Positions 4,054 to 57,956 of a stretch of 64,000 nucleotides of DNA are shown in pieces; position 1 is the stretch's first letter; every line of letters starts with the position of its first letter. The notes under the pieces are model-generated. The model saw only the letters and a list, made by a program, of their open reading frames with translations, was not told the origin of the DNA and made no database searches. The position numbers and the translations under genes are program-made. This stretch comes from Escherichia coli (GTDB lineage: Bacteria > Pseudomonadota > Gammaproteobacteria > Enterobacterales > Enterobacteriaceae), in NCBI RefSeq assembly GCF_024502345.1, contig NZ_JALDNN010000001.1, one strand, 5' to 3'.

Positions 4054-5110
4054 GGCTTTGTTGAATAAATCGAACTTTTGCTGAGTTGAAGGATCAGATC
4101 ACGTATCTTCCCGACAACGCAGACCGTTCCGTGGCAAAGCAAAAGTTCAAAATCACCAACTGGCCCACCTACAATAAAGCCCTCATCAACCGTGGCTCCA
4201 TAACTTTCTGGCTGGATGATGAAGCTATTCAGGCCTGGTATGAGTCAGCAACACCTTCTTCACGAGGCAGACCTCAGCGCTATTCTGACCTTGCCATCAC
4301 GACTGTGCTGGTCATTAAACGCGTATTCAGGCTGACCCTGCGCGCTGCGCAGGGCTTTATTGATTCCATTTTTTCTCTGATGAACGTTCCGCTACGCTGC
4401 CCGGATTACAGCTGTGTCAGCAGGCGGGCAAAGTCGGTTAATGTCAGTTTCAAAACGCCCACCCGGGGTGAAATCGCACACCTGGTAATTGATTCCACCG
4501 GGCTGAAGGTCTTCGGTGAAGGCGAGTGGAAAGTCAAAAAGCATGGCCAGGAACGCCGCCGTATCTGGCGTAAGCTGCATCTCGCCGTTGACAGTAAAAC
4601 ACATGAAATCATCTGCGCTGACCTGTCGCTGAACAACGTTACGGACTCAGAGGCCTTCCCCGGGTTAATCCGGCAAACCCACCGGAAAATCAGGTCAGCC
4701 GCCGCCGATGGCGCTTACGATACCCGGCTATGTCACGATGAACTGCGGCGTAAGAAAATCAGCGCGCTTATCCCTCCCCGAAAAGGTGCGGGTTACTGGC
4801 CCGGTGAATATGCAGACCGTAACCGTGCAGTGGCTAATCAGCGAATGACCGGGAGTAATGCGCGGTGGAAATGGACAACAGATTACAACCGTCGCTCGAT
4901 AGCGGAAACGGCGATGTACCGGGTAAAACAGCTGTTCGGGGGTTCACTGACACTGCGTGACTACGATGGTCAGGTTGCAGAGGCTATGGCCCTGGTACGA
5001 GCGCTGAACAAAATGACGAAAGCAGGTATGCCTGAAAGCGTGCGTATTGCCTGAAAACACAACCCGCTACGGGGGAGACTTACCCGAAATCTGATTTATT
5101 CAACAAAGCC
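4054..5110 (+). mobile_element. IS903-family (IS5 superfamily) insertion sequence, 1057 bp, copy 1
   Basis: 18-bp terminal inverted repeats GGCTTTGTTGAATAAATC at both ends; 1057-bp length matches IS903; identical second copy at 52638..53694; no 9-bp target-site duplication. Confidence 0.85.
4131..5054 (+). CDS. IS903-family DDE transposase (307 aa from GTG; the ORF track extends to 4086)
   Basis: ORF fills the IS; IS5-family transposase-like sequence (…NWPTYNKALINRGSITFWLDDEAIQAWY…); GTG start inferred from the 307-aa IS903 transposase length. Confidence 0.8.
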   Translation: MAKQKFKITNWPTYNKALINRGSITFWLDDEAIQAWYESATPSSRGRPQRYSDLAITTVLVIKRVFRLTLRAAQGFIDSIFSLMNVPLRCPDYSCVSRRAKSVNVSFKTPTRGEIAHLVIDSTGLKVFGEGEWKVKKHGQERRRIWRKLHLAVDSKTHEIICADLSLNNVTDSEAFPGLIRQTHRKIRSAAADGAYDTRLCHDELRRKKISALIPPRKGAGYWPGEYADRNRAVANQRMTGSNARWKWTTDYNRRSIAETAMYRVKQLFGGSLTLRDYDGQVAEAMALVRALNKMTKAGMPESVRIA

Positions 5111-49722: not shown

Positions 49723-52637
<2,915 letters not shown>

Positions 52638-53694
52638 GGCTTTGTTGAATAAATCGAACTTTTGCTGAGTTGAAGGATCAGATCACGTATCTTCCCGACA
52701 ACGCAGACCGTTCCGTGGCAAAGCAAAAGTTCAAAATCACCAACTGGCCCACCTACAATAAAGCCCTCATCAACCGTGGCTCCATAACTTTCTGGCTGGA
52801 TGATGAAGCTATTCAGGCCTGGTATGAGTCAGCAACACCTTCTTCACGAGGCAGACCTCAGCGCTATTCTGACCTTGCCATCACGACTGTGCTGGTCATT
52901 AAACGCGTATTCAGGCTGACCCTGCGCGCTGCGCAGGGCTTTATTGATTCCATTTTTTCTCTGATGAACGTTCCGCTACGCTGCCCGGATTACAGCTGTG
53001 TCAGCAGGCGGGCAAAGTCGGTTAATGTCAGTTTCAAAACGCCCACCCGGGGTGAAATCGCACACCTGGTAATTGATTCCACCGGGCTGAAGGTCTTCGG
53101 TGAAGGCGAGTGGAAAGTCAAAAAGCATGGCCAGGAACGCCGCCGTATCTGGCGTAAGCTGCATCTCGCCGTTGACAGTAAAACACATGAAATCATCTGC
53201 GCTGACCTGTCGCTGAACAACGTTACGGACTCAGAGGCCTTCCCCGGGTTAATCCGGCAAACCCACCGGAAAATCAGGTCAGCCGCCGCCGATGGCGCTT
53301 ACGATACCCGGCTATGTCACGATGAACTGCGGCGTAAGAAAATCAGCGCGCTTATCCCTCCCCGAAAAGGTGCGGGTTACTGGCCCGGTGAATATGCAGA
53401 CCGTAACCGTGCAGTGGCTAATCAGCGAATGACCGGGAGTAATGCGCGGTGGAAATGGACAACAGATTACAACCGTCGCTCGATAGCGGAAACGGCGATG
53501 TACCGGGTAAAACAGCTGTTCGGGGGTTCACTGACACTGCGTGACTACGATGGTCAGGTTGCAGAGGCTATGGCCCTGGTACGAGCGCTGAACAAAATGA
53601 CGAAAGCAGGTATGCCTGAAAGCGTGCGTATTGCCTGAAAACACAACCCGCTACGGGGGAGACTTACCCGAAATCTGATTTATTCAACAAAGCC
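52638..53694 (+). mobile_element. IS903-family insertion sequence, 1057 bp, copy 2 (identical to copy 1, same orientation)
   Basis: Same 18-bp terminal inverted repeats; the encoded ORFs are identical to copy 1; no target-site duplication. Confidence 0.85.
52715..53638 (+). CDS. IS903-family DDE transposase
   Basis: Identical to the transposase ORF at 4131..5054. Confidence 0.8.
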   Translation: MAKQKFKITNWPTYNKALINRGSITFWLDDEAIQAWYESATPSSRGRPQRYSDLAITTVLVIKRVFRLTLRAAQGFIDSIFSLMNVPLRCPDYSCVSRRAKSVNVSFKTPTRGEIAHLVIDSTGLKVFGEGEWKVKKHGQERRRIWRKLHLAVDSKTHEIICADLSLNNVTDSEAFPGLIRQTHRKIRSAAADGAYDTRLCHDELRRKKISALIPPRKGAGYWPGEYADRNRAVANQRMTGSNARWKWTTDYNRRSIAETAMYRVKQLFGGSLTLRDYDGQVAEAMALVRALNKMTKAGMPESVRIA

Positions 53695-54038
53695 GAGTGA
53701 TGCGTTACTTTCCGGTAAAAATAAAAAGGTAAATAGAGCGCAATATCGGAAATAACATCGCCAGTTTCATTCAAAATCGCCCCCAGACGTGTTTGCTGAT
53801 TGCACTCACGCGCCAACATGCCATCCAGCGCATTGAGCGCCATACGGATAAAAAGCACGATGGGCAATAGCAAAAAGAGGATGGGTTGTGCCACCAACAC
53901 CAACAGCAATCCGGTAAAAAGAGAAAGCGCCAGTGCCGTAAGAGTGATGTGATTCGCTGTAACGTGGTGCTTATAAAGCCAAAACATCGTCGGCCTTAAC
54001 AGCGACTGAAAGAGCGGTTTTATCTGGTAGAGCGTCAT
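53695..54038 (-). pseudogene. ynbA: CDP-alcohol phosphatidyltransferase-family protein YnbA, 3'-truncated by the IS element (about 114 codons retained)
   Basis: ORF begins MTLYQIKPLFQSLL… and continues into the IS right end. Confidence 0.65.
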
Positions 54039-54287
54039 TTATCATTCCGTGATATTCAGTTTGCTCTATGGTGCATCAATTGTGATGGCGGAGATATCAC
54101 AACGCGGAGCATCAACGTAAATTCGGAATATATCAAGATGTGGTGGATGGTTTTCCTACACATCTGTTTGATTACCGACTGGATGTCAGTGAGATACCAT
54201 CGATCACTGTACGAATCAATGAATCCATTGCCTTTTCCCTGATTATCCAGCCGCAAATCCTGGCCTTAAACATATGCACTCCATGCC

Positions 54288-54328
54288 ATTAAAAAAGAAA
54301 CAAAAGGGAAATGCATCTTTCCCTTTTG
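54288..54328 (-). terminator. Rho-independent terminator downstream of ydbC
   Basis: 11-bp stem CAAAAGGGAAA/TTTCCCTTTTG followed on the minus strand by a T-rich run. Confidence 0.55.
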
Positions 54329-54336
54329 TATATTCG

Positions 54337-55197
54337 TTATTCTCGCGAAATACCATCCAACGTAGACAACACTTCCTCAGAAAGATGCAATTTTTCAGCA
54401 GCCATATTCTCCCGTAAATGCGCAACAGAAGACGTCCCTGGGATCAGCAAAATATTCGGTGAACGTTGTAACAGCCACGCCAGCGCCACCTGCATGGGTG
54501 TTGCACCCAGGCTCGCAGCAACATCGGAAAGTGTGGACGATTGCAGCGGTGTAAAGCCCCCGAGCGGGAAGAACGGCACGTAGGCAATGCCATCGTGGGC
54601 CAAAGCATCAATCATTGCATCATCAGCACGGTGCGCGATGTTGTATTCGTTTTGCACACAGACAATTTCGGCAATCTTGCGCGCCTCTGCAACCTGCGTC
54701 GGTGTGACATTGCTCAGGCCAATATGTTTTACCAGGCCTTGTTGTTGCATCTCTGCCAGCACGGTCAGGCTGGCCTCAATCGATCCTTCCGCTGGGCCAT
54801 GACCATCCCCCATCATAACGCGCAGGTTAACCACATCCAGCACGTCCAGCCCGAGATTACGTAGATTATCGTGCACCGCTTTTTGCAGCTCTGCCGGAGA
54901 AAATGCGGGCAACCAGGAAGCGTCCTCTCCACGCCGCGCACCAATTTTAGTGACAATTGTCAGGTCGTCAGAGTAAGGATAAAGCGCTTCGCGGATAATC
55001 TGATTGGTGACGTGCGGACCATAAAAGTCGCTGGTATCAATGTGAGTGACGCCCAATGCCAGCGCCTCACGCAGCACAGTTATAGCGACGTGGCGATCTC
55101 TTGGGGGACCAAAAACCCCAGGACCTGCCAGTTGCATCGCGCCATAACCAAGACGGTTAACGGATTTTGTACCGAGAGTAAATGTATTGCTGCTCAT
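54337..55197 (-). CDS. pdxI: Aldo-keto reductase (pyridoxine 4-dehydrogenase PdxI/YdbC)
   Basis: 286-aa AKR-fold ORF. Confidence 0.85.
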   Translation of the reverse strand: MSSNTFTLGTKSVNRLGYGAMQLAGPGVFGPPRDRHVAITVLREALALGVTHIDTSDFYGPHVTNQIIREALYPYSDDLTIVTKIGARRGEDASWLPAFSPAELQKAVHDNLRNLGLDVLDVVNLRVMMGDGHGPAEGSIEASLTVLAEMQQQGLVKHIGLSNVTPTQVAEARKIAEIVCVQNEYNIAHRADDAMIDALAHDGIAYVPFFPLGGFTPLQSSTLSDVAASLGATPMQVALAWLLQRSPNILLIPGTSSVAHLRENMAAEKLHLSEEVLSTLDGISRE

Positions 55198-55351
55198 CGC
55201 ACCCTGCCCTGTAATAAAACGGATTGAGAAAAATCAGTATAGAAACGAAAAGAGATAAATAATGCGAAGGCGTAAACAAGATTACTGGATGAGTTGCTCT
55301 ATTGTCCTGAAAAACACAAAACAAAACGCGTCAAGTACCGCATCCGGCAAT

Positions 55352-55383
55352 AAAAAACCGCAACCTGTATAGCGTTGCGGTTT
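55352..55383 (-). terminator. Rho-independent terminator downstream of paaY
   Basis: CCGCAAC/GTTGCGG stem with T-run on the minus strand. Confidence 0.55.
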
Positions 55384-55425
55384 AGGTATCACATGCTAAA
55401 AATTAGAATGTTCAGTATCTGGACG

Positions 55426-56016
55426 TTACTGTTTCGGTCGCAGATTCTCATCAAATACCAGACGTTTCCTGTTCGGTTCAACTTCCCGCAATGGCTCAAC
55501 TTGATGCAACGTCTGCTTACAACGAGTCACCAGCACCTGATACTCATGCGTACCCTGCTTTTTCCATGCCAGCTCCTGCTCACTGAGTTCACGAATCGCT
55601 TTCGCCGGGCTGCCGACAATCAGGTAATTGGCAGGCATTTCTGCTTTGGCTTTCACAAATGCGGATGCGCCAACAATGCTGTTCTCGCCAATCACCGCGC
55701 CGTCCATCACTACCGCGTTCATTCCCACTAATGCATTGCGGCGGATAATGCAACCATGAAGGATAGCGCTATGACCAATATGCCCATCTTCTTCCACGAC
55801 AGTATCCTGTTCGGGAAAACCGTGCATAACGCAATTATCCTGAATGTTCGCGCCATCTTTCACTACGATACGACCAAAATCGCCACGCAGATTGGCATTT
55901 GGCCCAACGTAAACGCCCTTGCCGAGAATAACATCGCCGATCAATACCGCTGTCGGATGGACAAAACTCTCTTCTGGCACAACCGGAGTCAGACCATCTA
56001 TCTGGTAAATTGGCAT
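55426..56016 (-). CDS. paaY: Hexapeptide-repeat thioesterase PaaY
   Basis: 196-aa left-handed beta-helix ORF; position downstream of the paaX remnant. Confidence 0.85.
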
Positions 56017-56555
56017 AACGCCTCCTGTTCAATATTCAAACCGCCAAAACGTTGAAAATACAGGCTTCCCGGCGCAGGCAGTTCACCGACCGAGGTTTCA
56101 CCTTTTTCACTAACGAACGCTAAAGCAGCAGGCGCTACGCGCTGATAAATGTTGATACACAGCTGACGCGCCGTATGCCCTGCCCAGTGCGCCGGAAGCA
56201 ACTCCTCTGGCAACAATGGGTCTTTAAGGACGACACGGCGATAAAAATGGATCAGTAAAAGCTGAATATGAAATGCACGCTCCGGGGTTAACTCGTCTGC
56301 TGCCTCTTTTAACAGCGGCACCAGCGGGCGGAATGACTGAATAAAGGTTTCGTACATGGCATTTTGTTCAGTTAAATGCCAGCACTCTTCCACTCTGGCA
56401 CGCAGTGCTGCACGAGAAAGCGCCAGTGGTATTTGCGCTTCAAAACAAATCACGTTATCCGCCAGAAGGGCATTATTTAGCGCATTACGTGCGGCGGGAC
56501 GGTTAAGGGTCAGCAACAATACTTGTTGCTGACGGCTGACGATCAGTTCGCTCAT
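55998..56555 (-). pseudogene. In-frame fusion remnant: first ~31 codons of enoyl-CoA hydratase PaaF joined to the C-terminal ~154 codons of repressor PaaX
   Basis: N-terminus MSELIVSRQQQVLLLTLNRPAARNALNNALL is a crotonase-type start, but the remainder lacks crotonase features and sits where the paaX 3' end should be; junction near 56462. Confidence 0.6.
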
Positions 56556-57193
56556 GCCATCCCCTTCGCGTCAAAGTCAACCACCACATCGCTGGTCAGC
56601 GGCAGTGCCTGGCAACTCAACACATAGCCTGCGGCCAGTTCATCCGGTTCCAGACTGTAATTGGTTTCCATCGCCACTTTGCCACGCAGCACTTTGCATT
56701 TGCAGGTCGCACAGACGCCGCCTTTGCAGGCATAGGGCAGATCAGCCCCCTGGCGCAATGCCGCATCGAGAATGCTTTCATCGTCGGCATTAAGCACGAT
56801 TTCCCGATCCCGCCCATCCTGACGTACAGTCACTTTTTGTCCGTCACTTTGCACGTTAACGCTACGTTTGACGCGCGTGCCAGGCGTATTAAACCGCTCC
56901 AGATGAATGGTTTTATCTGGCATTCCCAGTGCTTTTAAGGCGGCTTCCGTCTCATCCATCATCGCCGCCGGACCACAAATAAATGCCTCATCATAAAGAC
57001 GAAAATTAATGAGCGAGGCCCCAAGTGACTGTAATTTTTCACCGTCAATACGCCCGTGAAGCAGATCGCTGTCGAGGGTTTCCTGACTGAAAATGCACAA
57101 CAACTGTAAACGCTGAGGATATTTGTCTTTCAGGTCTGCCAGTGCCTGGCGAAACATCATGCTCTGGCTGGTACGGTTACCGTAGATCAGGGT
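56552..57193 (-). pseudogene. paaE: 3' fragment of paaE (ferredoxin-NADPH reductase subunit; 2Fe-2S C-terminal domain retained, N-terminal FAD domain deleted)
   Basis: CKGGVCATCKCKVL 2Fe-2S motif; the frame extends upstream of the listed Met to about 57193, where homology ends. Confidence 0.65.
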
Positions 57194-57956
57194 GATGCCC
57201 GCACAAAACCAGCGACATGCTCTGCAACTGGCTTGTGCAGGCGGCGGTAGCCTTGCGGGAACGCTGGTGACGGCTGATCCGCAAATTGCGCGTCAGTTTA
57301 TTGCCGACGCGGCACGTACGCATGGGCGAATTCAGATCCTCAATGAAGAATCGGCAAAAGAATCCACCGGGCATGGCTCCCCACTGCCACAACTGTTACA
57401 TGGTGGGCCTGGTCGCGCAGGAGGCGGTGAAGAATTAGGTGGTTTACGAGCGGTGAAACATTACATGCAGCGAACCGCTGTTCAGGGTAGTCCGACGATG
57501 CTTGCCGCTATCAGTAAACAGTGGGTGCGCGGTGCGAAAGTCGAAGAAGATCGTATTCATCCGTTCCGCAAATATTTTGAGGAGCTGCAACCAGGCGACA
57601 GCCTGTTGACTCCCCGCCGCACAATGACAGAGGCCGATATTGTTAACTTTGCTTGCCTCAGCGGCGATCATTTCTATGCACATATGGATAAAATTGCTGC
57701 TGCCGAATCTATTTTTGGTGAGCGTGTGGTACATGGATATTTTGTGCTTTCTGCGGCTGCGGGTCTGTTTGTCGATGCCGGTGTCGGTCCGGTCATAGCT
57801 AACTACGGGCTGGAAAACTTGCGTTTTATCGAACCCGTAAAACCAGGCGATACCATCCAGGTGCGTCTCACCTGTAAGCGCAAGACGCTGAAAAAACAGC
57901 GTAGCGCAGAAGAAAAACCAACAGGTGTGGTGGAATGGGCGGTATGGGCACGCTAA
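57194..57956 (+). pseudogene. paaZ: 3' fragment of paaZ (end of ALDH domain plus MaoC hot-dog hydratase domain); last ~20 codons replaced at the tynA junction
   Basis: MaoC-like region …[19 protein letters not shown]…VVHGYFVL…; divergent from the paaE fragment with no intervening paaA-D. Confidence 0.65.

Follow-up and report, generated by a model that had tools for sequence, protein, structure and literature searches.

The two compact junctions on either side of pdxI (ydbC) in the 64,000-nucleotide stretch of Escherichia coli DNA analysed here (the window) are very probably inherited scars of old deletions, and ordinary alleles in E. coli. The alignments show the marks of two events. One deletion took out the paaY–ydbA spacer, ynbG included, and spared only the final ≈22 nt of ydbA, so that the ydbA terminator came to lie ≈40 nt behind paaY while the pdxI upstream region stayed as it was. 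A separate, independent event removed ydbD from codon 11 to 71 nt beyond its stop codon, leaving the pdxI terminator, the ydbD ribosome-binding site and 10 codons, a segment of 106 nt, and the ynbA upstream region.

Since each event spared the signals of the neighbouring genes, both alleles would have been tolerated and have diverged. Homologous recombination may then have carried the compact alleles from one lineage to another. The window's lineage would have inherited both scars and later added its own, unrelated decay, consisting of paa/tynA deletions and an IS903-like element.

Organization of the pdxI region

The features of the region are listed in Table 1. The gap between the ynbA start and the pdxI stop measured 298 nt (54039–54336) and that between the pdxI start and the paaY stop 228 nt (55198–55425), in agreement with the sizes given in the initial annotation. 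The K-12 gene order given there also agreed with the MG1655 annotation (b1400–b1408), which reads paaY–ynbG–ydbA(IS2D, IS30C)–pdxI–ydbD–ynbA. Each gap had furthermore been described as essentially filled by a terminator hairpin. One good hairpin was indeed found in each, but at ≈30 nt it occupies only about one-tenth of the gap. The remainder is made up of the upstream regions of pdxI (conserved) and ynbA, the gene remnants and the 106-nt segment.

Table 1. Features of the window from the ynbA fragment to paaY.
Feature	Position	Strand	Evidence or remarks
ynbA 5′ fragment, 124 codons	53664–54038	−	ORF listing, NCBIfam and blastn
ynbA upstream region	54039–54137	−	Common to ydbD-containing alleles; ≈79% identity to K-12
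106-nt segment, only in ydbD-less alleles	54138–54243	.	
ydbD remnant: start codon and first 10 codons (MFKARICGWI)	54244–54273	−	
ydbD ribosome-binding site	≈54278–54282		Just upstream of the ydbD remnant
pdxI intrinsic terminator (predicted)	54300–54329	−	12-bp stem, then TTTCTTTTTT; z = −4.5
pdxI (ydbC), pyridoxine 4-dehydrogenase, intact	54337–55197	−	PRK10376, 557 bits
pdxI upstream region	55198–55354	−	≈96% identity to K-12; half-REP-like GCCGGATGCGG motif inside
Former ydbA terminator hairpin and T-tract (predicted)	55355–55383	−	≈40 nt downstream of the paaY stop
ydbA 3′-end remnant, including stop codon (GTCCAGATACTGAACATTCTAA)	55403–55424	−	
paaY, intact	55426–56016	−	TIGR02287, 375 bits

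Both hairpins have the features of putative Rho-independent terminators: a GC-containing stem-loop, a U-tract, stability above that of shuffled sequences and a location downstream of a gene. The 83-nt stretch that holds the hairpin behind paaY had a folding energy of −23.8 kcal/mol (z = −3.4 relative to shuffles), and the hairpin is followed by UUUUUU. The stem behind pdxI was picked up by the terminator scan on the plus strand as well. The ynbA fragment gave matches of the CDP-alcohol phosphatidyltransferase type in NCBIfam, none of which reached the curated cut-offs; for a gene fragment this is not surprising. The half-REP-like motif (GCCGGATGCGG...) lies at 55324–55348, between the ydbA terminator and pdxI, in both the window and K-12; compared to this half-REP, a full paired REP element was present upstream of pdxI in Pseudocitrobacter (L005) and in a divergent genome labelled E. 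coli (L004).

Three blocks flanking the junctions could be aligned to K-12 MG1655 by blastn: window 53694–54137 to K-12 1477966–1477522 (93.3% identity), 54244–55412 to 1475173–1474004 (98.0%), and 55425–56464 to 1465062–1464023 (96.6%). Two K-12 intervals had no counterpart in the window by blastn, namely 1465063–1474003 (8.9 kb, comprising ynbG, ydbA and two IS elements) and 1475174–1477521 (2.3 kb, comprising ydbD). paaY, pdxI and ynbA, with their terminator and upstream sequences, are orthologous in the two strains at 93–98% identity. K-12 differs in having ynbG, an intact ydbD of 768 codons and a broken ydbA, annotated in MG1655 as a pseudogene with IS2D and IS30C inside it; of these genes, only 22 nt of ydbA and 30 nt of ydbD are left in the window.

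The ydbA remnant between paaY and pdxI

Read in the K-12 orientation, paaY ends in ...CAGTAAC in the window, followed by GTCCAGATACTGAACATTCTAA and then by the hairpin AAACCGCAACGCTATACAGGTTGCGGTTTTTT. Less diverged compact alleles, from O145 RM9872 and KTa005, read GTCCTGATGCTGAAC-GTTCTAA, compared to GGCGTGATGCTGAACttcaagaaaacGTTCTAA at the 3′ end of K-12 ydbA. These alleles match the end of the K-12 ydbA frame by an exact 11-mer and an exact 7-mer, with the 11 nt between them missing and AAC repeats flanking. Base-level alignment to K-12 revealed the same paaY–pdxI junction in five compact alleles. The deletion begins one base past the paaY stop codon and removes ynbG. As expected of a ydbA-null allele, what follows the paaY stop is the terminal ≈22 nt of ydbA with the ydbA terminator behind it, and sequence comparison identified the hairpin at 55355–55383 as the ydbA terminator of K-12, APEC O18 and A24.

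The gene is found next to pdxI outside the typical E. coli strains as well. The order in Pseudocitrobacter faecalis is paaK–paaX–paaY–ydbA–pdxI–azoR and that in the divergent genome L004 is ydbA–pdxI–azoR, and ydbA also adjoins pdxI in a cryptic Escherichia clade (L099–L101). Because the compact alleles retain remnants of the ydbA 3′ end and terminator, and because these outgroups have ydbA beside pdxI, ydbA was most likely present ancestrally and then deleted.

No IS sequence was found at either compact junction. An IS-mediated deletion, or a scar left by IS excision, was rejected on this ground and because the genomes with the 106-nt segment all have just one copy of it.

The ydbA product is a large surface protein of the BigA/YdbA type. 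When the 3′ end of K-12 ydbA (L002, 12800–14014) was compared with 5426 complete E. coli genomes, the ydbA alleles ranged from 100% down to 60–80% nucleotide identity, making them far more diverse than the adjoining genes. Old allelic lineages, as of a surface protein, could account for this diversity. In some RefSeq records (H104–H107, H162 and H201–H206; locus L083), divergent or frameshifted ydbA genes bear the name "EntS/YbdA MFS transporter", which looks like a mix-up of the names ydbA and ybdA.

The ydbD remnant and the 106-nt segment

Past the pdxI terminator, the window retains GGCATGGAGTGCAT ATG TTT AAG GCC AGG ATT TGC GGC TGG ATA, corresponding to the ydbD ribosome-binding site and ten codons. 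Over 157 nt, the stretch containing this remnant shows no difference from the ydbD allele of L094/L095 (100% identity). Alignment confirmed the same ydbD-null allele, consisting of the pdxI terminator, the ydbD ribosome-binding site and first 30 nt, the 106-nt segment and the ynbA upstream region, in strains APEC O18, 504239, 729_270514_x_12, FHI_NMBU_03 and 2013C-3264. APEC O18, which we take to be a phylogroup B2 strain, shares the breakpoints and the 106-nt segment with the window, with 13 differences in 298 nt. Unlike the window, it has an intact ydbA of 8316 bp (encoding a 2771-residue YdbA) adjoining pdxI, and it lacks the whole fea/tynA/paa cluster, so that ydbL abuts ydbA. (Strain A24 was set aside as evidence, since its shorter junction looks like the result of assembly indels and many of its genes are frameshifted.)

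In E. albertii (L092/L093), the order is ydbL–pdxI–ydbD–azoR, with ydbL directly beside pdxI; paa, ydbA and ynbABCD are absent. The E. albertii ydbD is full-length, with 768 codons, and starts MLKARICGWI. The presence of a full ydbD after pdxI in this species indicates that ydbD and its start predate E. coli. The cryptic Escherichia clade has ynbABCD without ydbD, and only 74 nt separate pdxI from ynbA. The junction there reads ...GCATGGAGTGCATATGTTTAAAACAAGGATTGATAATG and keeps the ydbD start: ATGTTTAA of ydbD is retained, and the join lies at AGGATT, a sequence common to ydbD codons 5–6 and the ynbA leader. The cryptic clade thus represents a second, independent loss of ydbD with other breakpoints, joined at a microhomology. 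Other strains carry ydbD inactivated by IS1, by ISVsa5 or by frameshifts, and in two strains the gene is truncated beside IS200C. YdbD homologues (PF10971, DUF2773) were found only in Escherichia.

The 106-nt segment occurs once per genome in the 482 genomes with a compact pdxI–ynbA junction, and was absent elsewhere in the 5426 E. coli genomes in a distant blastn search. Comparison of the segment to K-12 ydbD and its spacer gave nothing above chance by blastn or by Smith–Waterman alignment with shuffles. The same was true of blastn comparisons to the L094-type ydbD allele (86% identity) and the E. albertii loci, and k-mer matching to the K-12, L094-type and E. albertii ydbD genes did not exceed chance. 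A seven-residue tblastn match between FIDSYSD in the segment and FIDSYYD in K-12 YdbD (E = 0.3) was rejected, because the motif is missing from other ydbD alleles. Since the 106 nt match no ydbD allele, the ydbD event was not a simple two-breakpoint deletion.

Nowhere in the gap is variation higher than in this segment, which has 13 variable sites among six alleles, as well as a 1-nt deletion in one. Seven of 15 variable sites fell at third codon positions, which by a rough estimate is not a significant bias, and the 1-nt deletion shifts the frame in the one haplotype that has it. The segment folded no better than shuffled sequences (z = −0.4 and −1.9) and had no match at threshold in Rfam. 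On the basis of the codon positions, the frameshift, the folding and the Rfam result, a gene for a small protein or small RNA in the segment was rejected. Likewise, there was no support for the 106 nt being a functional small RNA or peptide that replaces ydbD. The segment appears to evolve neutrally; neutral filler or captured DNA is our interpretation.

On its ynbA flank, the compact allele differs from K-12 to an unusual degree, with 79% identity for the leader and 93% for ynbA, compared to 99.5% for ynbC. Over the longer stretch from ynbC to ynbD (49924–52637), identity to K-12 was 98.6–99.5%, against the diverged ynbA 5′ part and leader (53694–54137). The fact that the latter are far more diverged than the adjoining ynbC–ynbD suggests import by recombination, in which case the diverged ynbA-side haplotype, linked to the ydbD-less allele, would be old and may have moved between lineages. 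The identical breakpoints, together with the divergence of this flank (93% for ynbA against 99.5% for ynbC, relative to K-12), point to a probable single origin and a probable spread through recombination.

The same observations can be arranged in a different order for the pdxI–ynbA junction only: the ydbD-less allele would be the original E. coli state, in which ynbABCD arrived with a 106-nt leader and displaced ydbD, and the combination of ydbD with ynbABCD would be a later recombinant. In favour of this order are the lack of any relation between the 106 nt and ydbD, and the occurrence of ydbD without ynbABCD in E. albertii and of ynbABCD without ydbD in the cryptic clade; the unusual divergence of the compact-allele ynbA flank would also be accounted for. 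However, an extra illegitimate recombination would be needed to rebuild ydbD upstream of ynbA, and two ydbD alleles that are only 86% identical in protein show the same 71-nt ydbD-distal spacer and breakpoint. Moreover, a microhomology deletion in a parent with ydbD next to ynbA accounts for the cryptic-clade junction, and even under this order of events, ydbD would have been lost rather than never present. We therefore consider it unlikely.

The interval between pdxI and azoR is found in several states: empty in Pseudocitrobacter, Kluyvera, Enterobacter and the divergent genome L004, with ydbD only in E. albertii, with ynbABCD only in the cryptic clade, and with both in most E. coli. With ynbABCD missing from E. 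albertii, and ydbD as well as ynbABCD missing from several relatives, what the interval contained ancestrally is an inference. The E. albertii spacer past ydbD has no recognisable kinship to the K-12 spacer after ydbD, and so did not serve to place the left boundary of the ynbABCD block. YnbA homologues outside Escherichia are only about 70–75% identical, which is too distant for tracing non-coding flanks. A possible but rather doubtful elaboration is that the pdxI–azoR interval has long been a hot spot in Escherichia at which genes were repeatedly gained and lost, with at least two losses of ydbD at different breakpoints, and that the 106 nt are foreign or donor-flank DNA captured in one such event.

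Distribution of the compact junctions and decay next to them

Junction-spanning queries were used to search 5426 complete E. coli genomes. The compact paaY–pdxI junction was present in 2032 of them at 93–99.8% identity, with the alignment uninterrupted across the junction, and the compact pdxI–ynbA junction in 482. Among the latter, the 106-nt segment was at least 99% identical to that of the window in 74, and 90–95% identical in about 400, including APEC O18. Both junctions were found on one fragment in at most 153 genomes. ydbD was present in 3991 genomes, and the barrel-encoding end of ydbA in at least 2538, at 60–100% identity.

All four combinations of ydbA and ydbD presence were found in E. 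coli. Both genes are present in K-12 and O157:H7; ydbA is absent and ydbD kept in O104:H4, O121:H19 and O103:H2 strains; ydbA is intact and ydbD absent in APEC O18; and both are absent, as in the window, in 2013C-3264 and about 150 other genomes.

The initial annotation had offered two explanations for the compact junctions. The first takes ydbA and ydbD for insertions of the K-12 lineage, which would make the compact state the ancestral one. K-12 ydbA does carry two IS insertions at the level of the lineage, YdbD homologues are confined to Escherichia, and pdxI lies directly beside azoR in Enterobacter, Kluyvera and Pseudocitrobacter. However, the frequencies of ydbD (3991/5426) and ydbA (at least 2538/5426) mean that neither gene is specific to K-12; ydbA is syntenic with paaY and pdxI in Pseudocitrobacter, as is ydbD with pdxI in E. 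albertii; and the compact alleles contain internal pieces of both genes. The first explanation thus fails in its K-12-specific form, and we regard it as highly improbable. A related candidate, a horizontally acquired K-12 island that is absent here, was rejected because the "empty" sites hold pieces of ydbA and ydbD, and because of the same synteny in Pseudocitrobacter and E. albertii.

The second explanation, further deletions in this strain, had the right direction, in that sequence was deleted, but the deletions are not specific to the strain. Strain 2013C-3264 is colinear with window 53694–56464 at 99.86% identity and has paaJ–paaY intact, which, together with the junction counts, shows that the junctions are not private to the window's strain. 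In its strict form, this explanation makes both junctions recent, private deletions that belong to the same decay as the loss of the paa operon. The lineage is clearly decaying. Three deletion junctions with alignment overlaps of 2–5 nt were found at window positions 56463–56464, 57193–57195 and 57940–57944, and the K-12 sequences missing from the window are 1457590–1464022 (paaF 3′ part to paaX 5′ part), 1452436–1456856 (paaZ 5′ part to paaE 5′ part) and 1450100–1451683 (tynA 5′ part to paaZ 3′ end). These deletions have taken the bulk of the paa operon, along with parts of paaZ and of tynA, leaving the fused fragments paaF'-'paaX, 'paaE, 'paaZ and 'tynA. A 1057-bp IS903-like element (IS5 family) at 52638–53694, the only IS near the compact junctions, truncates ynbA to 124 codons, a point that the initial annotation does not raise; an identical copy lies in the same orientation at 4054–5110. 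The element is abutted by a 1320-bp deletion (K-12 1477967–1479286), with loss of the ynbA 3′ part, all of ynbB and the ynbC 5′ end.

This decay has a very different distribution from that of the compact junctions. Not one of the 5426 complete E. coli genomes had the window's paa/tynA junctions in combination, against hundreds to thousands of genomes with base-identical compact junctions, in which the paa operon was intact where examined. The same decayed lineage was recognized in GCA_050022275.1 and in some metagenome assemblies, and one metagenome contig of the lineage, which still has a full-length paaE, is less decayed. Thus, it is the paa/tynA deletions and the IS903-like element, not the compact junctions, that are truly private events of the window's lineage, and a recent private origin of the two junctions is scarcely credible.

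In the sections considered here, Goldstone et al. 2016 (PMC4951805) describe the paa–ydbA interval as a region of heterogeneity between core genes in E. coli, with variable carriage of the paa genes and ydbA; by their account, about 42% of the genomes from phylogroup A have a full-length ydbA. Theirs is the same interval, from core genes ydbH/ynbE/ydbL to ynbC/ynbD/azoR. Those sections treat gene presence and absence only, whereas the present analysis gives the exact scars, their frequencies in 5426 genomes, the outgroups and the separate ydbD polymorphism. The heterogeneity of the paa–ydbA region was therefore already known, and the compact junctions are an ordinary presence/absence polymorphism.

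It follows, as a correction to the initial annotation, that the absence of ydbA and ydbD is uninformative about the strain's own decay, or about K-12 being unusual. The polymorphism is a standing one: about 37% of complete E. coli genomes are without ydbA at paaY–pdxI, and about 9% are without ydbD in the manner of the window. The scars are handy markers for the locus and show that ydbA and ydbD are dispensable. For ydbD, which encodes a DUF2773 protein, the repeated loss and inactivation is a modest hint of low selective value.
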